Shown: positions 34,066 to 53,445 of the stretch, piece by piece | Layout of the letters: each line of letters begins with the position of its first letter | Numbering within the stretch: position 1 is the first letter of the stretch | Virus record (IMG/VR): IMGVR_UViG_3300045988_138358 | Source: a virus | Taxonomy: Duplodnaviria > Heunggongvirae > Uroviricota > Caudoviricetes | Reading direction: 5' to 3' (one strand) | DNA: 64,000 nucleotides | Made by a program: the position numbers and the translations under genes | Notes under the pieces: generated by a model | Databases searched by the model: none | The model's input: the letters and a program-made list of their open reading frames with translations, nothing else | Told to the model about the DNA's origin: nothing

Positions 34066-34689
34066 ATGAAGGATGGTGTAGTGAAGTTAAGGGCTTTAGG
34101 GGCCGCGCTCGCGGCTATGTTGGGATGCGTATCTGCTAATACTGCCAATGCAACTGCGTTACCTGCACAATTCAGGGCAGGGCAGCAGGTTATGAATAAC
34201 GCTGGTGGAGATCATTCACAAGCGGCCATTATGGACTTTTGCAAGAGGGAGGGCATTCCATTACGGCCTGTTGGAACTCAGTTTATTGGTAAAACTGACT
34301 TTTGCGTTTTTGCATATACAGCATATCTGACGGACAAAGCTATAACAAAAACAGGTTATTCAACCAAAGATACTCTTTCCAGATTAAGTCAGGGATGGCA
34401 GCAATTCGAAGTGTATCGCCAGCAAGGATTAGGTGAGTTATTGCAACCTCTTTTTATGCTTGCGTTGGTGCCAGAGGGGCAGCAATTTTTGGTTAAAAAG
34501 GGAATGCTTCGCCAAAGTGATATTGCCGGGTTCGATAGCATGATGGCTTATGAGCGCAAACTAACCGAGCAGCGAAATAAAAAACCATCTGCTTCATGTG
34601 TGCAAAGTAAAACAGCAGAATACAGTGCAGTAGCCGGGCCTTTAGCCAAACAAATGGCAGAGCAATGGTGTAAAAAATACGGGCAATAA
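34066..34689 (+). CDS. predicted secreted protein
   Basis: ORF track 207 aa; N-terminal signal peptide. Confidence 0.4.
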   Translation: MKDGVVKLRALGAALAAMLGCVSANTANATALPAQFRAGQQVMNNAGGDHSQAAIMDFCKREGIPLRPVGTQFIGKTDFCVFAYTAYLTDKAITKTGYSTKDTLSRLSQGWQQFEVYRQQGLGELLQPLFMLALVPEGQQFLVKKGMLRQSDIAGFDSMMAYERKLTEQRNKKPSASCVQSKTAEYSAVAGPLAKQMAEQWCKKYGQ

Positions 34690-34709
34690 GTTACGCAGCG
34701 GAGGCAGAA

Positions 34710-35102
34710 TTGAAAAGATTGGCTATTGCTTTACTGGCGTCTTTCCCTTTGATCGCGAGCGCCGGAAATTTACAAGTTAAGTGCGGTCGGTTTGATATAA
34801 AAATCTATCCAGATGCCATATTTCTGAATGGGAATAAGGTTGATAACGCACACCGAAAAACTGAATCTGACGTAATGAGCTATGTGTTCCAGGAGTATGC
34901 GGAGATGGGGGGAACTTACACGCTGTACTCGCTGGATGTTCCTTCTCGCGGTGATATGACATTATCCCATCAATGGCAGAACGCCGATGGCGAAGCTCTG
35001 CGCGAGGTTAAAACAGAAAAATGTGGCACTTTCCATTCTTTTAAAGGGAAAGCGCCAAATGTTAAATCTGTGCTTGAAAAACAGCGCGCAGGTGAGCTTT
35101 AA
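34710..35102 (+). CDS. predicted secreted protein
   Basis: ORF track 130 aa; signal peptide ending ASA. Confidence 0.4.
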   Translation: MKRLAIALLASFPLIASAGNLQVKCGRFDIKIYPDAIFLNGNKVDNAHRKTESDVMSYVFQEYAEMGGTYTLYSLDVPSRGDMTLSHQWQNADGEALREVKTEKCGTFHSFKGKAPNVKSVLEKQRAGEL

Positions 35103-35489
35103 ACACCTTTAACCACGGAGATGCCGTTCCCTGCACGATAGCGGCGGGGAACGGAATTCTCCATCAGGTCACGAATTACTCCCGCCTCATGTAGTTCCAC
35201 TGTTTCCCAGTATCTGTTTGTCACCAATTACGCCCCTTTCCGCCAGGGGAAGGTATGAACGAGCTTCTGCTTCGGTTGCAGCCATGACGCAGATATACAG
35301 GTGTTTTTGGCAGGAATAGAAACGCCAGATAAATTCAGAATGAGTTGGGGTGGGGATAGTAGCGATATTGGCAGCCTCCTTTGACTAAGTTAAGGAGCTA
35401 CCGCGTGAGGTTCCAATCCCGGCACCCGTTTTTCTAAGGTGCCGTAGAAATATACCCCACGATAAGGCCAGGGCGCAAAAGTCAGTATT

Positions 35490-38468: not shown

Positions 38469-38791
38469 TGACCACATCTCATTCTGCAATTACCCAGGAA
38501 AAAGCCTTCCACATACTCGAACGATTAGAAACGCTCGCTACGGAGGAGAAGATATCCCCGGAGATGCTGGTCGAGTGCAGCCGTGTGATATTGCGTCGCA
38601 AGAACGACATCGCGCGGCTGACATCTGGCGCACCATCCGTATCAGCCAGTCCAACGCTTTATTGCAGCTTCTGCAACAAATCCCAGCACACCGTTAAAAA
38701 GTTAATTGCCGGGGACAACGCTTTCATCTGCAACGAGTGCGTGAAAGATTGCAACAACATTATCCAGGAAGAGCAAAGGGAATCAGCATGA
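38465..38791 (+). CDS. protein with C-terminal ClpX-type zinc-binding domain
   Basis: ORF track 108 aa; [39 protein letters not shown] is near-identical in pattern to the N-terminal zinc finger of E. coli ClpX as I recall it; no AAA+ module follows. Confidence 0.6.
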
Positions 38792-39504
38792 AATTTTCCA
38801 AATTTTCTGAGTTGGTGAATCGTATTTTGTCCGACAACCACAGCCATCGTCGCGATATGGATGTAACGATCGTTGTTCATTCGCCTGGTCGCATCGGTTC
38901 AACACCATCAGTTGAGGTTCAGTCAATTCAGGTGGGTTTTGATTGGGATGCCGGGAAAGTGCTGATTTTCCCAGCACAGCCACTGACCACGCTAACACCA
39001 GAACAGATTACTGATATCACGGATAGTGTGCGCAAAGGTCAGTCTTGGCACGCATATCAGGAATACAAGAAGCATAAAGAGCAGTTGGAAAAATTGTCGA
39101 TTGAACTGGATGCTGCAAGACGGCGCATTACAGAACTGGAGAGCGAACGCGCGGTGCTGGCGGCGGAGAATGCGGAGCTGAAGTCTGTGCACCCTCAACC
39201 ATTCGGAGCTGAGATGATGAAGGCTCTTGATGCGTATGAGAAGCATCAGGATGAAGTGCCAGAGACTGGAATGCTCAATGCATTTTTCATCTTGCGCGAC
39301 AGTATCTGTGTTGACACCCCAGCCACCGATGCTTTCCTGGCTGAAGTACGGGCGCAGGGGGTAGAGATGTACGCAGATAACCTCGACAACGGAGCAGACG
39401 ACGCAGAACGAGGTGGTTTTGATTATGCCGTTAAGTTTCTACGCAGTGAAGCGTCTAGTGTACGTTTGTTCGCCGACCAGCTTCGCAAAGGAGGCAGCCA
39501 GTGA
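38788..39504 (+). CDS. Ea22-like mosaic paralog
   Basis: ORF track 38737-39504; ATG at 38788 with AAGGGAA upstream. Confidence 0.45.
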
Positions 39505-43179: not shown

Positions 43180-43953
43180 ATGACCACTTTAACCGACAAA
43201 GAACTGATTAAAGAAATCAAAGAGCGCATAGGCAGCTTGGACGTTCGAGACAATATTGAGCGCCGTGCTTATGAAATTGCACTGGCATCGATGGAAGCAG
43301 ATCCAGTTGCTTATATTTTCAAACATCCGGCCGGGAAATTATTCTGGGCTTTAACGGATGAAAGCAATAAAGAGCAAGCGGACGTTATTCCTGTTTATGC
43401 CGCCCCTCCAGTACCAGTAGTACCTGCTGCATTACCTGAGAACGACGATGATGACGGGCATGACATTGATTATCTTGAGCCATCTGAAGTTTACTCGCTT
43501 GGGCGAACAGCTGGCTGGAACGCCTGCCGTGCTGCCATGCTTCATGGTGCCGAACCTGTAAGCCAAACTTACAAGTTGCCTCCCCTGTCATCCAACGAAG
43601 TAAACGACGCGGCATGGAAATTACGCAACATGCTTACTGAACACGGTCCTCTTAATGGGCGTCAGTTCAACAATCTGAAAGGTTGCTTCTATGAGGCATT
43701 AAAGGTCGCAATGCGCAACTATCCGGTAACTCCGGATGGTTGGATAAGCTGTAGTGAGCGAATGCCGGATACCAAAACAGCCGTTCTTGTTGCCAAGGAG
43801 TTTGATAGGAAAGGTGACTGGCGAATGAAATGGGCGACTTACATCCCGGGGCATCCTGACGCTAATGATGGGTGGATCATTCCTGGGGCGTCGTGGAAAC
43901 CGTCACACTGGATGCCGCTACCAGAACCGCCGCAGGAGGTTAACCGTGGCTAA
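43180..43953 (+). CDS. DUF551-like protein (tentative)
   Basis: ORF track 43147-43953; ATG at 43180 has GGAG upstream. Confidence 0.4.
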   Translation: MTTLTDKELIKEIKERIGSLDVRDNIERRAYEIALASMEADPVAYIFKHPAGKLFWALTDESNKEQADVIPVYAAPPVPVVPAALPENDDDDGHDIDYLEPSEVYSLGRTAGWNACRAAMLHGAEPVSQTYKLPPLSSNEVNDAAWKLRNMLTEHGPLNGRQFNNLKGCFYEALKVAMRNYPVTPDGWISCSERMPDTKTAVLVAKEFDRKGDWRMKWATYIPGHPDANDGWIIPGASWKPSHWMPLPEPPQEVNRG

Positions 43954-44227
43954 CCTTCAACTGGCAGTTAACGGTGAATATTTCGACCAGATGAAGTCTG
44001 GAGAGAAAACGGAAGAGTATCGCTTGTGTAATGACTACTGGAATAAGCGAATTCTGTTCCGCGAGTATGACCGCCTGATTATCACAAAGGGATATCCGAA
44101 GCGCGATGATTCCAGCCGCAGAATAGACGTCCCGTATGACGGATATGAAATCAAGACAATCACGCATCCCCACTTCGGCGATAAACCGGTAAAGGTTTAC
44201 GCGATAAAGGTAAATATCAATGGCTAA
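43946..44227 (+). CDS. small ASCH-like protein (tentative)
   Basis: Inferred GTG start at 43946 after GGAGG; ORF track lists a different N-terminus from 43865. Confidence 0.25.
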   Translation: MANLQLAVNGEYFDQMKSGEKTEEYRLCNDYWNKRILFREYDRLIITKGYPKRDDSSRRIDVPYDGYEIKTITHPHFGDKPVKVYAIKVNING

Positions 44228-44624
44228 ATTTCAAAGAAATATTATTTTTCTGGCAATGTTATCTGCCTGTCATTTATCTCATGCATCGGTTATTGCTGCG
44301 GGAGCTGCGGCAACCGCTGTAATTAGCGCCTCATCCGCCAGCGAGCATGAGCAACGTACTGCAATCAATGCATCTGCCAATACCACCACGGTATCAGTAA
44401 CACAAGAAAAGCCGAATATCGGCTTTGTTACTTGTGGCAAGCGATATGGTGAAATGGTTGGCTCTCTTGGTTGCGTAATGTGGCAAGACGACGACCGAAC
44501 AGAAATTCCGTGGAACTCATGGCCTGGCTACATTCTTGGTAAGAAGCTGCCCACCAGCTATGAAGTAAATGCTATTTCGTTCGACCAATATAACAGTGTT
44601 GCAACGGTCTATTTCTCTTATTAA
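44220..44624 (+). CDS. predicted secreted protein
   Basis: ORF track 134 aa; signal peptide. Confidence 0.35.
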   Translation: MAKFQRNIIFLAMLSACHLSHASVIAAGAAATAVISASSASEHEQRTAINASANTTTVSVTQEKPNIGFVTCGKRYGEMVGSLGCVMWQDDDRTEIPWNSWPGYILGKKLPTSYEVNAISFDQYNSVATVYFSY

Positions 44625-44636
44625 CACGGAGTAATT

Positions 44637-44930
44637 ATGTGGCGCGGTAATAATCATGGTGGAAGCCAGATGATACTTACCGAATATCAGCTCGACCACA
44701 AAACCAATAAATCACGCTCAGTATATTTGCTTCGGCACAATAGCCGCGTAAGGAATACCGTGCTGGAGCAAAATCTGACCGTTGAAATGGATAATTCGGG
44801 GAACTTCAAGCCAACAATTTCGCTTGATGATTTTCCGCGTGGTTTAAGCGAAAGAGAAGCCATGCTGAAATTAGCAGAATGGCTTCAGAGGTTAAGTATT
44901 GTTATTGAAGATAACTGGAGTCAACCATAA
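44637..44930 (+). CDS. hypothetical protein
   Basis: ORF track 97 aa. Confidence 0.3.
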   Translation: MWRGNNHGGSQMILTEYQLDHKTNKSRSVYLLRHNSRVRNTVLEQNLTVEMDNSGNFKPTISLDDFPRGLSEREAMLKLAEWLQRLSIVIEDNWSQP

Positions 44931-45106
44931 TGAAAAACAGAAAGAAATTTTGGATTACTTTTTTGTTTGTATGCCTTTGCGGTTTATTTATTTTATTAGC
45001 TGGTGGTGTTAAATGGGGTACGGTGGGGTGTGGTTTTTGGAGCGGGGTTACTCTTTTCGCAGCCTGGCTTATCGCCAACTTTGAGTCAGGCGGAGGGTAT
45101 TGGTAA
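44930..45106 (+). CDS. small membrane protein, 58 aa
   Basis: Hand-found; ATG overlaps the previous stop (TAATG). Confidence 0.3.
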   Translation: MKNRKKFWITFLFVCLCGLFILLAGGVKWGTVGCGFWSGVTLFAAWLIANFESGGGYW

Positions 45107-45185
45107 GTGGTCTTATTCCCCACTTCATAACGGATATCACGCTCGTGATAACGGATATTCCAATTTTGATAACGGATAAGGCCAA

Positions 45186-45395
45186 ATGAAGCATTTTTTA
45201 AGGTTGGCATTTGTTCTGGCGCTATTTGATCCTCCGGCTGCAATGGCTGGAGAACAGCAACATTGCACAAAAGAGAATGAACCCCCTTTCATCGTTATTC
45301 AATGCGATGACGGAACGGTGACTGTGGTTAATGTAAGAAATGACCGTGTAGCTGTTTGCCGTAAAGGCGAACCATGCAAGGAAATAAAACTATGA
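45186..45395 (+). CDS. small secreted protein
   Basis: ORF track 69 aa; signal peptide. Confidence 0.3.
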   Translation: MKHFLRLAFVLALFDPPAAMAGEQQHCTKENEPPFIVIQCDDGTVTVVNVRNDRVAVCRKGEPCKEIKL

Positions 45396-46150
45396 CAAGA
45401 ATCACTAAAGAGCGTATTTCAGATATTATTTCCCGTATCGAAATGTATGGTCACGGTGCTGGATATACGGCAGATGAAGTATTGGCACTTGCCCAAATGG
45501 CTTTGGCGGCTTGCAAAGATGATAAAAAAATGAAGCTTATCGACTTGTTAGTGAAGGAGCTGCCTAAGTGCGGCGGGTGGCCTGATGGTATGATCGATTG
45601 TCGCCTGCTCAGTGCCAATTTAATGGCGCCATGCGCGACTTTTGCTTTTGGCTCAGACCACAAAAAAGACACGTTCTTTGGGCGCAATTTTTGTTGTGAG
45701 ATTGAGCTTCCAATTGGTGACCTTGATAGCGATGAATACCTGTCAGTTGTCACTCGCGAACAATACGAATCAGCTCTCATAGCGTCGCAGAAAGTCGAGT
45801 TCAATGGTGATGAACTTGAAAGTAAGACTTACAGGTTGGATTTTGGGCAATGGCTGGAACAGCAACGCGGGAAAATCGATGTGGACTGTGGTTGTGTGTC
45901 CACTGAAACATTCATGCACTGGCTGCGGGTAGCTTACGAGGCTGGCAACCATCCGGATTTTCCGGATAGTTCCCAACAATCGCCCAAGAAAAGCGTAAAA
46001 ACCACTCTGGAAAGAGGCTATCTTGAGGCCGCATTAAAGATTAAGCCTGGCCATACGCTAGGCGTCATTGATGCCATGTTGGTTCATGAAATGGCGAAGG
46101 CTTTATTGCCGCTGGTGGCTGATAAAATTCCGAATAAAGCCGATATCTGA
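45374..46150 (+). CDS. hypothetical protein
   Basis: ORF track 258 aa. Confidence 0.3.
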   Translation: MQGNKTMTRITKERISDIISRIEMYGHGAGYTADEVLALAQMALAACKDDKKMKLIDLLVKELPKCGGWPDGMIDCRLLSANLMAPCATFAFGSDHKKDTFFGRNFCCEIELPIGDLDSDEYLSVVTREQYESALIASQKVEFNGDELESKTYRLDFGQWLEQQRGKIDVDCGCVSTETFMHWLRVAYEAGNHPDFPDSSQQSPKKSVKTTLERGYLEAALKIKPGHTLGVIDAMLVHEMAKALLPLVADKIPNKADI

Positions 46151-46189
46151 TCACCATGCTAAAATCCCCTCAATTCACAGAGGGGATTT

Positions 46190-46462
46190 TTGTATATGTT
46201 GCATAGAGTTTTATGGAAAAGCGTTATTGTCGGCGCGATACTGGCTATATCTGGGTGTGCAATGGTGCAATACAACGACGGTGAAAAGGTAAGCATACAG
46301 TCAGATGGTTGGTATGGCCTGGATAGCCTGCAAAAAACCGCAGATAAAGCCTGTCAGCAATATGGGAAGTCTAAAGCAGTATATCAGCATAGCGCGAACG
46401 CTAACCCTCATCTAGCGCCCGGTTCTGGTGTTCAGAATACCATCTGGAAATGTGAGCCTTAA
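46190..46462 (+). CDS. predicted lipoprotein
   Basis: ORF track 90 aa; lipobox ISGC. Confidence 0.4.
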
Positions 46463-46464
46463 AT

Positions 46465-46716
46465 ATGAGCGACTGGAATATTGCAGCTAAAAGTCAGGAA
46501 GAACGGGATAAGGTTAACGTTGATCTGGCTGCCAGCGGTGTGGCGTACAAAGAGCGATTGAACATACCTGTCATAGCTGAACAGGTAGCCCGCGAGCAAC
46601 CAGAGAATCTGCGCACCTATTTCATGGAACGGCTACGGCACTACCGGCAGTTAAGCCTCCAGTTGCCAAAAGGGAGCGATCCGGTGTATCAGAACGAGGA
46701 TGCACCAAAAAAATAG
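46465..46716 (+). CDS. hypothetical protein
   Basis: ORF track 83 aa. Confidence 0.3.
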
Positions 46717-46801
46717 CGGCAAGATGGGGGAGAAATGTGATTAGCCCCCAGCGTGGCGCGCCTACAAACCCAGCTTTCACAAACTATGCCTTTTCAATGT
46801 A

Positions 46802-46839: not shown

Positions 46840-47229
46840 ATGGGCTTCCCTTCTCCTGCGGCGGATTATGCAGAGAGCCGCATTTCTCTTGATCAGCAAC
46901 TAATCAGACATCCTTCCGCGACCTACTTCATGCGGGCGGCAGACAGCCATCACCGTGAGGGAATATTGCAAGGTGCTTTGCTGGTGGTTGATTCCTCACT
47001 TACTCCGGTTGATGGTTCACTGCTTATATGCGCTATGGAGGGTGAATATCGCATAAAGAGATACAGGAAGTATCCGCGCCAGCACCTGGAGGATTTAAGC
47101 ACCGGGAAGAAAGAGGCGTTACCAGTAGATGACGATGGATACACGGGCAGTAATGCTGTTTTTGGTGTGATCACTCATGTCATCAATGATGCCCGAAGTG
47201 GGGAGTTTGATTATAGACCTGTGATTTAA
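46840..47229 (+). CDS. humD: HumD-like, pre-truncated UmuD' homolog
   Basis: ORF track 129 aa; begins MGFPSPAADY, i.e. at the position of the UmuD self-cleavage site as I recall it. Confidence 0.65.
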   Translation: MGFPSPAADYAESRISLDQQLIRHPSATYFMRAADSHHREGILQGALLVVDSSLTPVDGSLLICAMEGEYRIKRYRKYPRQHLEDLSTGKKEALPVDDDGYTGSNAVFGVITHVINDARSGEFDYRPVI

Positions 47230-47239
47230 GGCGCATAAA

Positions 47240-47270
47240 GAAGCCCGCCAGACCAGGCGGGCTTTTTGTT
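47240..47270. terminator. intrinsic terminator between humD and the convergent minus operon
   Basis: Hairpin AGCCCGCC-loop-GGCGGGCT followed by TTTTGTT. Confidence 0.65.
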
Positions 47271-47274
47271 GATA

Positions 47275-48369
47275 TCATTCAATGATTTTTTCGGCTGTCA
47301 GCCAGCTAATTTCGTGCCTGTCTTTCGGCGGTTTTAGCATGTGAGCATATTCAGCGACATGCTCCCACGGAATTGTTTTTGCCCACTCAACGATAGCATT
47401 GTGATCTGCAGTGAAGAGTGGAATAGTGTGCGATTTCAACCATTCTAATGTCGTGACGCCATGTTTTTTGGCGTGGTGCTGCGCATGATGCCGGGCTATC
47501 ACTCGTAATGGCATTGTCCATTCACTACCATCAGGCATCGAAAAGCGCATTGTCTTCGGCATATCTGATTCAAGAACAGCCTCCCTAATACCAGGGAACT
47601 CACCAAGAATCATACGACGATAGTCATCACTATTTCGCCCGCCATACCTTTCGGCAAAATGATCAAGATATTCTTGGGTAATAAATGGTGAATCCTCCGC
47701 ACTCAGCTTAATGGCTTTATATACACCACTCGGATTATCTTCAGCTAAAGCACGTCCATGATGTGAATCATAAAAAAAGCCTATTTCCTCTGGTGACGGA
47801 ATTGAAGTGAGCAATATGCGTGAATCACCACTAGTCATGCTTGCCCACACAATGCTGTATGCCCGATCGCTGATATGTGCGGAATCCACAATAATGAATA
47901 AAAGATGGTCGGCGTAGTGACCTGCAATGCTATCTTCATAGTTAAGGCGGTAGTTACAAAAGCACATTCCCCAAAATTCATTGAACATCAGACCGCTATC
48001 ACCGACCTTAAAATACTCAATGATAAAAGGTTGTTTTTTCAGCAATGCCTCCCAACATTGCCACACATATGCAACAATTCCTCTTTTGCAAACATTTGAT
48101 TTTGGATAAACAATTACTGTCCGGGAATCAGGATACATAATCGTATAAAGGGTACTAATAACAGCAAGCACTTGCGGTCGTCCGATCCCATACGGAGTGG
48201 TGACAGTAGCTTTTGCATTATTGGGCTGTATAGCTTCAACAATTTGTTGTTGCTGGTGGCTTAAATCAATATCAAACAATTCTTTTGCTGCCAGTACCCA
48301 ATTGTCTTTATATTTCTCCACCAGCGACAGCCAGCGCGGATCTTTATAAATATTGCTCTTAGTCGCCAT
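47275..48369 (-). CDS. terminase large-subunit ATPase-domain paralog with degenerate Walker A and B, no nuclease domain
   Basis: ORF track 47275-48660; likelier start ATG 48369. Aligns by eye with the PacB-like protein at 53517-55025, but GHGTGKS is PYGIGRP and LDEAS is VDSAH. Confidence 0.6.
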   Translation of the reverse strand: MATKSNIYKDPRWLSLVEKYKDNWVLAAKELFDIDLSHQQQQIVEAIQPNNAKATVTTPYGIGRPQVLAVISTLYTIMYPDSRTVIVYPKSNVCKRGIVAYVWQCWEALLKKQPFIIEYFKVGDSGLMFNEFWGMCFCNYRLNYEDSIAGHYADHLLFIIVDSAHISDRAYSIVWASMTSGDSRILLTSIPSPEEIGFFYDSHHGRALAEDNPSGVYKAIKLSAEDSPFITQEYLDHFAERYGGRNSDDYRRMILGEFPGIREAVLESDMPKTMRFSMPDGSEWTMPLRVIARHHAQHHAKKHGVTTLEWLKSHTIPLFTADHNAIVEWAKTIPWEHVAEYAHMLKPPKDRHEISWLTAEKIIE

Positions 48370-49126
48370 CTGCCACTTCCTTAACTTCTTCTTTGGCCTG
48401 TTCTGCAATCGCCGCACGGCATTTCGCCCTGGCCGTAGCGATTGCTTCAGCACGCACATCATCAGGAATCGTTGACGTGATATACATATCCAGTTCTTCG
48501 GCGCGGAACACTGTTTGGTCCAGATATTCGCGTAGCATCCAGGTAAATTCGAAATCACACGCGATAATCTCTGCGCTACCTTCTGCACCATTTGGGAAAT
48601 GAATAAAAGCCTGTTTAGCCAAACCGATAACACGACATGCGGTTGCCAAAACAGCGGCAACCAGGTTTACATTTTCACACGCTACGGGCTGATTAACGCC
48701 GGAGATTACTCCATTTAACTGTCGGTTATATGGAAGGTAGTTTGAGATGCGTTCTACGCGCCATGTGCCAGTCAGGCTGCCATTCTTAAAGATAATTGGT
48801 GTAACGGATAGCCCAAGCTCGCGTATAAGTCGTTGCGCTATAGCAGGATCATTAAACATGTCTAATGCTACACATTCGAAAGACTGTGCAAGGGTAAACA
48901 GTTCTTCCAGAGAGTAGTCTTTGCCCCTGGCGGTGATGTAACGATGAACGCCGCTTTCTGCATCACTCCATATAGCTACGCCATGCTCTTCATTCAGCTC
49001 TTCATTAAAGCCGAGATACGTCATGATAGTACGTTCAATCGTGTCAAACGGCAGTGACATGTCGGCGTTAACAGCCACCAGCAGGCCATTACGCAAGCGG
49101 TATTGAATTGCTTTAGTATTTTCCAC
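48359..49126 (-). CDS. hypothetical protein
   Basis: ORF track 255 aa; overlaps the downstream gene start. Confidence 0.35.
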   Translation of the reverse strand: MENTKAIQYRLRNGLLVAVNADMSLPFDTIERTIMTYLGFNEELNEEHGVAIWSDAESGVHRYITARGKDYSLEELFTLAQSFECVALDMFNDPAIAQRLIRELGLSVTPIIFKNGSLTGTWRVERISNYLPYNRQLNGVISGVNQPVACENVNLVAAVLATACRVIGLAKQAFIHFPNGAEGSAEIIACDFEFTWMLREYLDQTVFRAEELDMYITSTIPDDVRAEAIATARAKCRAAIAEQAKEEVKEVADGD

Positions 49127-50579: not shown

Positions 50580-50920
50580 CGACGCCCCCTTGCAGGATAT
50601 CGACCGGCATTAGTATCCGGTGCAATAAAGCCGGTAGTGGGGCGAGTGAAAGCGAGATTAATCTTCTCGACCATAGTGCGATAATTTTCCTGATAGTGGG
50701 CCAGGAGTTTTTCGGCGGCAATGATGGTTACTTTCCGGACGTAGCTTTCTGCTTCCTCCAGATTTCGCCAGTTTTTTTCGAGGGTAAACACAGGGACGGC
50801 CTCAAGCCCGGTCATGATGCCGAACACAACGACAGCATGACTGTTCTTAACACCAGCGGCGAAGGTTACGGTGTAACCATCCACCTTGAAGCGTCTTGAT
50901 TCCGTGATTTGACTCTGCAA
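50576..50920 (-). CDS. hypothetical protein, first gene of the operon
   Basis: ORF track 114 aa; TTG start preceded by GGAGG. Confidence 0.3.
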   Translation of the reverse strand: MQSQITESRRFKVDGYTVTFAAGVKNSHAVVVFGIMTGLEAVPVFTLEKNWRNLEEAESYVRKVTIIAAEKLLAHYQENYRTMVEKINLAFTRPTTGFIAPDTNAGRYPARGRR

Positions 50921-50977
50921 AGCACCCTCCTAAATAGGCGAGGGTACTTTACAGCAAAGACGTTAATCTAAAAAGAT

Positions 50978-50987
50978 GTGTTAGAAA
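50978..50987. promoter_or_regulatory. operator-like half-site GTGTTAGAAA upstream of the 50920 operon
   Basis: Recurrent motif. Confidence 0.4.
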
Positions 50988-50993
50988 TTTAAT

Positions 50994-52022
50994 TTACGAA
51001 TCCATCAGGCGGCTATTAGCCCCCACAGACACGCCGCCACGGCGAAGATACCGCATAAGTGTTTCCGGTTTCTTCCAGGTTCCTTCCTGCATGATCTCCA
51101 CCATAGACACCTGCTTTTCAGCCATATCAATAGCGGCCCCGACGCGTGCACTATGCCCGGTCCACGTCCGGTATCTTCCTTTGTTTGGCGTAGCATCTCT
51201 TTTATTCAGCAACACCCAGGCGTCGCTGAATATTTTCTCCATTGCAGGTGCAGTAAGGGGCGTTGTCGTGATCCTGGCCTTATTGCTACGGTGTATCGGC
51301 GGGAACAGCACTGCGTCAGGATGTTCGCGAAGCCCGGAAACATCCAGCCAGTCATTCAGCACAGCGGTAGTGCGACGGGAAAGCACCTTATCAAGCCCGG
51401 CGGCGGTCGTTATTGTCTTCGTGTGTGAAATATGTAGCGTGACAGTGTCACCTGTTTGGTCCAGATCTCCTACACGAATACGCGAGATTTCCGACATACG
51501 CATCAGCGTATTGTATGCAACAAAGAGAAAAGCCCGGTTGCGCAGGTCCACCAGCCGTTCTGACCTGGACAACAGGACGTCGAGCAGTTTCAGATCGTCC
51601 CACCGCAGCGGTATAGCCTGGCCTGTTCGTTCGCCTTTTTCAGTTGCCGCTTCGCGCCGGATGCGCCGCATAGCCAGAGAAACACTTTTATCATCCGAAA
51701 GTGGCGGAAGGCCACAATGCGAAAGCAGCATGTTCAGCATGGCGTAGTGCTTATCAATGGTGGTCGAAGCCAGATCGGCATCATGCAGCTGAAGAAAATA
51801 CTCGCGGGCCATTTCTGGTGAGATCGGAAACCAGGCAAGCTGGCGAGCGTGACACCAGCGCGCCCAGGAATGAAACACCAAACGGAGGTCGCGCAGAGTA
51901 TTCGGCGCATAAGCTCCCTGGTCATTCATGAACCGCATAAAGTTTTCTGCGGCTTCCTGGTACTCTTTGCCAATGTTGCGCAGAAAACCACCGGAACTGC
52001 CAGAGATAATTAATTCACTCAT
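50994..52022 (-). CDS. cre: Cre-like tyrosine site-specific recombinase
   Basis: ORF track 342 aa; C-terminus WTGHSARVGAAIDMA..EIMQEGTW..MRYL matches P1 Cre (WSGHSARVGAARDMA..EIMQAGGW..MNYI) as I recall it, catalytic His/Arg/Trp/Tyr in place. Confidence 0.85.
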   Translation of the reverse strand: MSELIISGSSGGFLRNIGKEYQEAAENFMRFMNDQGAYAPNTLRDLRLVFHSWARWCHARQLAWFPISPEMAREYFLQLHDADLASTTIDKHYAMLNMLLSHCGLPPLSDDKSVSLAMRRIRREAATEKGERTGQAIPLRWDDLKLLDVLLSRSERLVDLRNRAFLFVAYNTLMRMSEISRIRVGDLDQTGDTVTLHISHTKTITTAAGLDKVLSRRTTAVLNDWLDVSGLREHPDAVLFPPIHRSNKARITTTPLTAPAMEKIFSDAWVLLNKRDATPNKGRYRTWTGHSARVGAAIDMAEKQVSMVEIMQEGTWKKPETLMRYLRRGGVSVGANSRLMDS

Positions 52023-52173
52023 GAAACTATTTAACCTCTATATACAGATGACGCTACGCGAAAAATATAAAAATGACAGGGTAGCTATAAGTTAATTTTC
52101 AAGATTCAAGCCTTTGATTCGATGCACGTATTTTCAGTGATGTCAATACTGATCATCTACCCATGATTATAGC

Positions 52174-52207
52174 CTAACTTTAAATAATGCCAATTATCTA
52201 AAGTTAG
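52174..52207. other. lox-like site: 13-bp inverted repeats around an 8-bp spacer (CTAACTTTAAATA-ATGCCAAT-TATCTAAAGTTAG)
   Basis: Seen directly; arms match 12 of 13; same 13-8-13 layout as loxP; ~150 bp upstream of cre. Confidence 0.6.
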
Positions 52208-52379
52208 AAATTTAGGAATTTTTTTCCTTTCCGCGCAGATGGGCAATGCATTGCTGGTGTGGGCTTTAAGTTATGCCTGGCAGTTTTTAAGCAGAATTTT
52301 CTAAATTGGATGATAAAAAAATGCATCTTGATCCTTTACTCACCCTGTTATTCGGCATAGATTTGTCATAGTAATTTTA

Positions 52380-52390
52380 TGTTAGAAAAC
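52380..52390. promoter_or_regulatory. operator-like half-site TGTTAGAAAAC just upstream of the 52408 gene RBS
   Basis: Recurrent motif. Confidence 0.4.
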
Positions 52391-52407
52391 TAAATCGAGT
52401 AGGAATA

Positions 52408-53445
52408 ATGAGTAAGAAGTCGATCGAGAAAGAGTACAAACGGTTCCTGCAAACCGCTGAACGGTGGAAAGAGCTGGTGGTCGCAAACTCTGTTTTCCAT
52501 GATACCAGTTATTCCGGCGAGGAATTCCGCCATGTTGCACTAACACATGATCAGAATGTGCTAGAAGAAGCTGAAAAGTGCCTCACAGAATGGAAAGCCT
52601 TTGTTGACTTGTGCCGTAACGCTGACGGCAAAGCGTCTAACATTGTTGAGTCTGTATATTCTCCGATCCCATTCATTATCGAGGACACAAATCAAAGCAC
52701 GCATATTGTTGTGCAAAGCGCGACCACCACCCGCTCATTTACGCGCGAAAATCTGCTCAAAAAATATGATGCAATTATAAAGAAAAGCCTGAAAAACAAG
52801 ATATTTTCGCAGATTGTTGGTGCACTTGAAGAAGAGCGCCGTTTTTTCGCATCAGAACCTGAAGGGGAAGTTTACCGGGCGCGCAAAGATGGATACACAG
52901 ATGTAGTGCTTACAACAAACATTGAAGGCAGCAATGCTCTGTCACGATTCAGGGTAGGCGCACACGGAGCCTTAGTGTTCGCAAAACTTCCGAACACCAC
53001 AGTGCCCGTTGTTAATAATGTCGGCGAACGTCGCAGCATTACTATTTATTCTGGGGTTGAGTCGATACCTTGCGGCCTGCTTGGTGACTTTAGTCTCTAT
53101 CGCGTTCGCGATCTGGAGAAACACCAACCAAGCTATGTTGCGAAGTCATACATCTTGCGAAACATCGACATCCGCAATGAGAGCTTAAAGAACAAATCAG
53201 CCAAAATGCTTGAGGAAGCCGATCCGGCTATTCGCCATATCATTGAGCGTAAAATACAGACAGCACGCGAAGCGATGGCGAGACTGAATAAAATGGATCT
53301 GGAGTTGTTAGACGTAATGATGACATCCGGAGATGACCTGACAGGCATAAAACTGACAGACGCGCGGAAAAGATACGGTAAAACCATAGAAGAACGTTAC
53401 GGGTTCACTTTCTCCCAAACACAGCACGCCGCTAAACTCTGGTAA
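52408..53445 (+). CDS. hypothetical protein
   Basis: ORF track 345 aa; AT-rich upstream region; between lox-cre and the terminase genes. Confidence 0.4.
   Translation: MSKKSIEKEYKRFLQTAERWKELVVANSVFHDTSYSGEEFRHVALTHDQNVLEEAEKCLTEWKAFVDLCRNADGKASNIVESVYSPIPFIIEDTNQSTHIVVQSATTTRSFTRENLLKKYDAIIKKSLKNKIFSQIVGALEEERRFFASEPEGEVYRARKDGYTDVVLTTNIEGSNALSRFRVGAHGALVFAKLPNTTVPVVNNVGERRSITIYSGVESIPCGLLGDFSLYRVRDLEKHQPSYVAKSYILRNIDIRNESLKNKSAKMLEEADPAIRHIIERKIQTAREAMARLNKMDLELLDVMMTSGDDLTGIKLTDARKRYGKTIEERYGFTFSQTQHAAKLW

Follow-up and report, generated by a model that had tools for sequence, protein, structure and literature searches.

The 64,000-nucleotide stretch of viral DNA analysed here (the window) carries a recombinase gene with a palindrome upstream of it. 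This raises the question of whether the two form a Cre/lox system of new specificity, as an earlier note on this DNA had proposed, or a system that is already known.

Identity of the recombinase

The gene in question is the following:

50994..52022, minus strand: dre gene, encoding the Dre tyrosine recombinase of 342 aa plus stop (evidence: ORF, D6 identity, Cre alignment, Pfam)

The translated protein was found to be 100% identical (342/342 aa) to Dre of phage D6 (AAV84949, translated from AY753669). A search against solved Cre structures matched Cre residues 21-340 with Dre residues 22-341 at E=5e-69, and alignment with P1 Cre revealed 42% identity over the full length. The gene product is, as the earlier note had stated, a Cre homologue; the minus strand on which the gene lies had been left unstated there. 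The Pfam profile Phage_integrase scored 62.6 bits on Dre (cutoff 27.1), and the N-terminal SAM-like domain reached 21.6 bits, slightly under its cutoff of 22.3.

The catalytic His, Arg, Trp and Tyr that had been said to be kept from P1 Cre do align with it (H290, R175/R293, W316 and Y325). The invariant columns of the Dre-P1 Cre alignment comprised R175, K202, H290, R293, W316 and Y325, and this Arg-Lys-His-Arg-Trp-Tyr set of Dre matched the Cre catalytic positions 173/201/289/292/315/324. The active-site residue numbers published for Dre are those found in the window protein (PMC4777119). Judged by its catalytic residues and full-length homology, the window recombinase belongs to the Cre-like group (Cre/Dre/Panto).

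Identity of the upstream site

The palindrome can be framed in two ways, and it contains one substitution relative to the site of D6:

52174..52207, palindrome: 34-bp lox-type frame, CTAACTTTAAATA-ATGCCAAT-TATCTAAAGTTAG
52175..52206, no strand: 32-bp rox site, TAACTTTAAATAAT-GCCA-ATTATCTAAAGTTA (31/32 positions of canonical rox; aligned with the misc_recomb feature of AY753669)
52198..52198, plus strand: naturally occurring T->C change, c1-proximal arm of rox (alignment with D6 rox; 9/33 Dre loci)

The 13-8-13 palindrome that had been reported about 150 bp upstream of the gene was located at 52174..52207, its distance from the dre ATG being 151 bp. In the 13-8-13 reading the arms are complementary at 12 of 13 positions, and a repeat search of the window resolved it into a 4-nt centre and two 15-nt arms that are 93% complementary. 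In the literature, rox is a 14-4-14 site with two 14-bp inverted repeats and a 4-bp asymmetric spacer (PMC4777119, PMC12331466). Chuang et al. assigned ATGCCAAT to rox positions 1-8 through alignment with the loxP spacer and argued that rox is probably cleaved at the loxP-equivalent positions (PMC4777119). Given this alignment, the 13-8-13 reading corresponds to the loxP-aligned view of rox. The description of the site as having the loxP architecture but a different sequence is borne out, 21 of 34 positions being common to the site and loxP.

The window site matches the misc_recomb feature of AY753669 that is annotated as 'region of crossover (rox) site for Dre recombinase'. The annotated D6 rox reads TAACTTTAAATAAT-GCCA-ATTATTTAAAGTTA, and the window is identical to it base for base except for the T->C change at 52198; no difference lies in the spacer or the dre-proximal arm, and 13 of 14 positions agree in the c1-proximal arm. 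Outside the 32 bp, position 52207 is G in the window versus T in D6, whereby the palindrome grows to 15 nt per arm. Allowing up to 3 mismatches, a search with the 32-bp rox returned exactly one match in the window and 0 in 100 window shuffles. D6 likewise carries one copy, and no extra rox half-sites were found in a search of D6 and the window.

According to PMC4777119, Dre came to light in phage D6, as a homologue of Cre that is specific for another site, and Dre/rox was described in 2004 by Sauer & McDermott, who are cited there. Dre recombines canonical rox efficiently in E. coli and in mammalian cells, and no recombination is obtained with loxP (PMC4957104, PMC12331466). The checks suggested in the earlier note are thus on record for canonical rox. 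In genome engineering, Dre/rox is a standard tool, free of cross-reaction with Cre/loxP (PMC4777119, PMC4957104, PMC12331466). Karimova et al. had already spotted Dre and rox in E. coli draft genomes via a Cre homologue and a nearby palindrome, the same route as in the earlier note (PMC4957104).

The proposed new Cre/lox specificity falls away, the protein being D6 Dre and the site being the annotated rox with one base changed. As for the suggested value as an orthogonal recombination tool, Dre/rox is indeed orthogonal to Cre/loxP, but it has been known for more than 20 years, and in work with mice, zebrafish, cell lines and bacteria it serves as an established second recombinase system beside Cre/loxP. 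The discovery value of the locus is small, and the check removes a false 'new specificity' lead.

Genomic context: a D6-like plasmid prophage

The gene on the far side of rox from dre is the prophage repressor gene:

52408..53445, plus strand, transcribed away from rox: c1 prophage repressor gene (ORF; product 90% identical to D6 C1)

Megablast of 50900..52400 against annotated phages gave Escherichia phage D6 as the sole match, and the D6 features under this match were 'dre: tyrosine recombinase' and the rox crossover site for Dre. The immC gene order pacA-pacB-c1-rox-dre-orf2-orf3-dut of the window is that of AY753669, and pacA-pacB-c1-rox-dre is also present in MF356679. As in D6 (AY753669, MF356679), rox lies between dre and c1, 152 bp upstream of dre when the 32-bp site is considered. 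Collinearity with D6 was found for 56,523 of the 64,000 bases (88% of the window) at 87-97% identity, the matched part of D6 beginning at 36.4 kb, passing the genome end at 91,159 and the origin (rox itself), and stopping at 12.3 kb.

Among the genes that the element shares with D6 are those for plasmid replication and partition. The 1.5-kb locus was found in 120 PLSDB plasmids, 117 of which are typed as non-mobilizable, the listed records being about 78-96 kb in size. Among 5,426 complete E. coli genomes, 101 carry it, at 103 places, all of them on ~90-kb plasmids; chromosomal copies among these 5,426 genomes numbered 0. These counts bear directly on the possibility that the recombinase is a prophage integrase for a chromosomal attachment site and the palindrome the attP core, a reading in keeping with the generic 'Phage integrase family', which is all that Pfam gives, and with the RefSeq label 'tyrosine-type recombinase/integrase'. 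All 103 places being on plasmids, the element bearing D6 plasmid replication and partition genes, and the protein being Dre, for which a simple 32-bp site is the substrate (PMC4777119, PMC4957104), this possibility is vanishingly small, and a chromosomal phage integrase was rejected. From the D6 identity, the collinearity and the plasmid-only location it follows that the window comes from an E. coli plasmid prophage of the D6 type.

The defining features of Dre/rox that can be read in silico, namely protein identity, site sequence (31/32) and genomic position, were all found in the window. With Dre 100% identical and the site agreeing with rox at 31 of 32 bases in the same position, the system is one that is already known. 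We hold it to be highly probable that Dre/rox, as a site-specific recombination system, is what this locus of a D6-like plasmid prophage encodes, the in-phage roles explained in the following section being its likely function. No observation spoke against this identification. The locus departs from textbook Dre/rox at a single base of one arm, where it carries a common natural variant.

Proposed mechanism and comparison with P1 Cre/loxP

By analogy with Cre, and in line with published experiments on Dre, each inverted-repeat arm of rox would be bound by one Dre monomer, and synapsis would bring together two rox sites and four Dre monomers. Tyr325 would make staggered cleavages in the central region, with strand exchange proceeding via a Holliday junction, and the recombination would need no accessory factors. 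Given a single rox per genome, Dre would resolve plasmid-prophage dimers to monomers ahead of partition. It would further circularise terminally redundant infecting DNA, as Cre/loxP also does in P1.

P1 Cre/loxP is the multimer resolution system of a plasmid prophage (PMC10999674), and we infer the two in-phage roles of Dre/rox, dimer resolution and cyclisation, by transfer from P1. The plasmid-dimer-resolution role that the earlier note put forward is the one to be expected here. This transfer fits the presence of one rox per genome with no extra half-sites in D6 and the window, the exclusively plasmid-borne state of the element, and the pacAB-c1-site-recombinase synteny, which is shared with P1 together with the spacer orientation.

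Both systems are found in plasmid prophages, with one palindromic site that precedes the recombinase gene and adjoins c1 and pacAB. In both, the recombinase gene is divergent from c1 and the 'CAT' end of the spacer is directed toward the recombinase gene; at the protein level, all catalytic residues are common to the two enzymes. The asymmetric core has 8 bp in loxP versus 4 bp in rox, and the arms of loxP depart from those of rox and pox at half-site positions 8-10 and 25-27 (PMC4957104). The site-ATG distance is 151 bp here versus 418 bp in P1, measured from the end of the lox arm at base 17 to the start of cre at base 436 of the P1 record, and in P1 the cra gene and three cre promoters are situated between lox and cre.

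A recurrent natural allele of rox

The substituted base, 52198, counts as position 24 when the 32-bp rox is numbered and as position 25 in the 34-bp lox-type frame. Written out, the C-allele rox site is TAACTTTAAATAATGCCAATTATCTAAAGTTA, with ATTATCTAAAGTTA as c1-proximal half-site versus ATTATTTAAAGTTA in canonical rox, and C25 breaks the symmetry between the rox arms. Cre residues 43, 259 and 263, at which Dre and Panto depart from Cre, lie close to positions 8-10 and 25-27 (PMC4957104).

The frequency of the allele was determined in a set of 33 loci on viral contigs, gathered via the Dre protein and not via the site, in which the relative is at least 70% identical and the upstream region intact. 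A rox-type site was present 151-153 bp upstream of the ATG in all 33 loci. It was canonical in 21 and equal to the C allele of the window in nine, and three had an altered centre (spacers GCTA and CCCC, plus ...AAC-TCCA..., which also bears the arm C). The nine C-allele loci all encode a full-length Dre, 89-100% identical to that of the window. The C is confined to the same, c1-proximal arm in all loci, and no enzyme change is coupled to it: Dre proteins identical to that of D6 were found beside the T allele as well as beside the C allele. We conclude that the C allele is a recurrent natural variant and not a private error.

It could be held that the rox of the window is crippled, the T->C change weakening Dre binding to one arm of a system that is decaying or poor. 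The change does fall within the 25-27 triplet near the Cre/Dre specificity residues (PMC4957104), it brings the arm symmetry down to 12/13, and a full-text literature search for the C-allele sequence on both strands found no paper and hence no published test. However, nine of the 33 independent viral contigs share the allele, each with a full-length Dre; this amounts to a frequency of ~27% over diverged backgrounds and is unexpected for a deleterious allele. The remainder of the site does not vary, nor does its distance from dre, and the dre ORF is intact, with a protein identical to functional Dre. A crippled site is judged unlikely on these grounds. That the allele is common, sits in the same arm and comes with no enzyme change argues for a tolerated allele, and the C-allele rox would, as far as can be inferred from these comparisons, still be a good Dre substrate.

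The pox site of Panto was considered as an argument that Dre tolerates a change at position 25 and was dropped, as the pox primer sequences give T at this position (the supplementary figure, machine-read, gives A).

Wild D6-like plasmid prophages hold at least two common rox alleles and rare spacer variants (GCTA, CCCC, ...AAC-TCCA...), and such natural rox variants could be cheap candidates for additional rox sites. The variants with centres CCCC, GCTA and ...AAC-TCCA... are found in loci L057, L067 and L071 (IMG/VR 2579778873_000001, 2908543018_000007 and 3300009011_000012), where the adjoining Dre relatives show 99%, 89% and 70% identity, respectively. These three are candidate natural rox sites incompatible with canonical rox.

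A putative promoter overlapping rox

The dre side of rox overlaps a promoter-like sequence:

52166..52193, minus strand: putative dre sigma-70 promoter, TTGGCA-16 nt-TATAAT (11/12 consensus match)

The -35 hexamer TTGGCA (52188..52193) is inside the rox core and the -10 hexamer TATAAT (52166..52171) is just beyond the dre-proximal arm, so that this arm sits between the two. It is the only promoter match of at least 11/12 in the 64-kb window; when the intergenic region was shuffled, a match of at least 11/12 arose in 47 of 2000 shuffles. TATAAT was unchanged in all 33 related loci despite varying flanks, including the locus with the 70%-identity homologue. The TTGGCA-16-TATAAT element looks like the dre promoter, and the overlap suggests that rox carries promoter activity in bacteria. 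With a Dre-bound arm between -35 and -10, it is plausible that Dre on the dre-proximal arm autoregulates dre. If the promoter overlap is real, rox placed in constructs brings along a strong outward-reading bacterial -35 element.

This near-consensus promoter, directed toward dre and overlapping rox in the way described, could also be taken to favour a reading in which the palindrome is mainly a transcriptional control element (operator/promoter) for dre and c1 and recombination is secondary. Such a reading is very improbable in view of the experimentally established role of rox as the Dre crossover site (AY753669 annotation; PMC4957104, PMC4777119); regulation would supplement the crossover function and not supplant it.

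Hypervariability on the c1 side of rox

Between rox and c1, the sequence varies markedly among the related loci:

52207..52340, approximate limits, no strand: hypervariable segment from rox to the conserved c1 leader, ~140 bp (pairwise identity)

The mean pairwise identity was 55-72% in this c1-side segment, the dre side reaching 88-95%. Among the loci, the segment falls into discrete alleles, ~50% identical to one another, with a sharp edge at rox, and the dre-side haplotypes were found to be reassorted relative to the alleles of the c1-side segment. The rox C allele was present in 9 of 10 loci with the segment allele of the window versus 0 of 20 loci with the two other common alleles. Compared with D6, the window carries another allele of the segment in its c1-side flank, and protein identity across rox drops from 100% for Dre to 90% for C1. 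The pattern fits an exchange of immunity-side modules, which may take place at or near rox between D6-like phages; alternatively, homologous recombination within the conserved dre side could produce it.

In a more far-reaching reading, rox would combine the dre promoter with Dre autorepression, C25 would alter the affinity of the c1-proximal arm and thereby make recombination or regulation asymmetric, and rox would be the exchange point for c1-side immunity. We regard this combination as speculative and rather doubtful.

Related recombinases and sites

Panto/pox of Pantoea sp. aB comprises a Cre-family enzyme that is ~52% identical to Dre (PMC4957104), whereas the window protein is Dre itself. 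A single position distinguishes the pox arms, GAAACTTTAAATA, from those of rox (PMC4957104), and rox and pox are each recombined by both Dre and Panto (PMC4957104). The spacer of pox is ATAAGTCT versus ATGCCAAT in rox, on account of which co-integration between rox and pox is not seen (PMC4957104).

A further Cre-family recombinase, 55-56% identical to Dre and 52% to Panto, was encountered in loci L073 and L074 (IMG/VR 3300013827_000026 and 3300025735_000294). Its site, located at L073:1317-1350 and L074:1317-1350, is the perfect 14-6-14 palindrome ATAACTTTATATAATGTCAGTTATATAAAGTTAT, 150 bp upstream of the recombinase ATG. The arms differ from those of rox at lox-frame positions 10 and 25, the base at position 25 being that of loxP; at the remaining arm positions where loxP and rox differ, they have the bases of rox. 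This recombinase may add an uncharacterised third enzyme to the Dre/Panto group.

When rox arms with any spacer were searched for in a contig set holding one genome per species, a single locus was obtained; the set evidently lacks a D6-like plasmid. The hit, L035:6375-6418 on the chromosome of an uncultured Clostridia MAG (OZ007016.1), is a 44-bp A/T-rich palindrome with 20-nt arms, in which both 14-bp rox arms are exact, the spacer is TAAT and the flanks are A6 and T6. No Dre homologue was found by tblastn (E<=1e-10) in the 8-kb L035 locus. The palindrome was rejected as a rox site; it is probably a chance occurrence or a terminator-like hairpin.

Stretches of the window absent from D6

Four stretches of the window, 34124..35246, 38774..39490, 43310..46007 and 46126..46743, gave no blastn match to phage D6 (E<=1e-20) and are predicted to be accessory or replaced modules of the D6-like element. 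An ORF at 47275..48660 (minus strand) likewise falls in a stretch absent from D6 (gap 47222..48385). Over 258 aa, its product shows 37% identity with the N-terminal half, the ATPase, of the window's own PacB terminase, and its C-terminus is unrelated. Inspection by eye revealed degenerate Walker A-like (GIGRPQ versus GTGKSS) and Walker B-like (IVDSAH versus ILDEAS) motifs, and the ORF may encode an inactive terminase paralogue.
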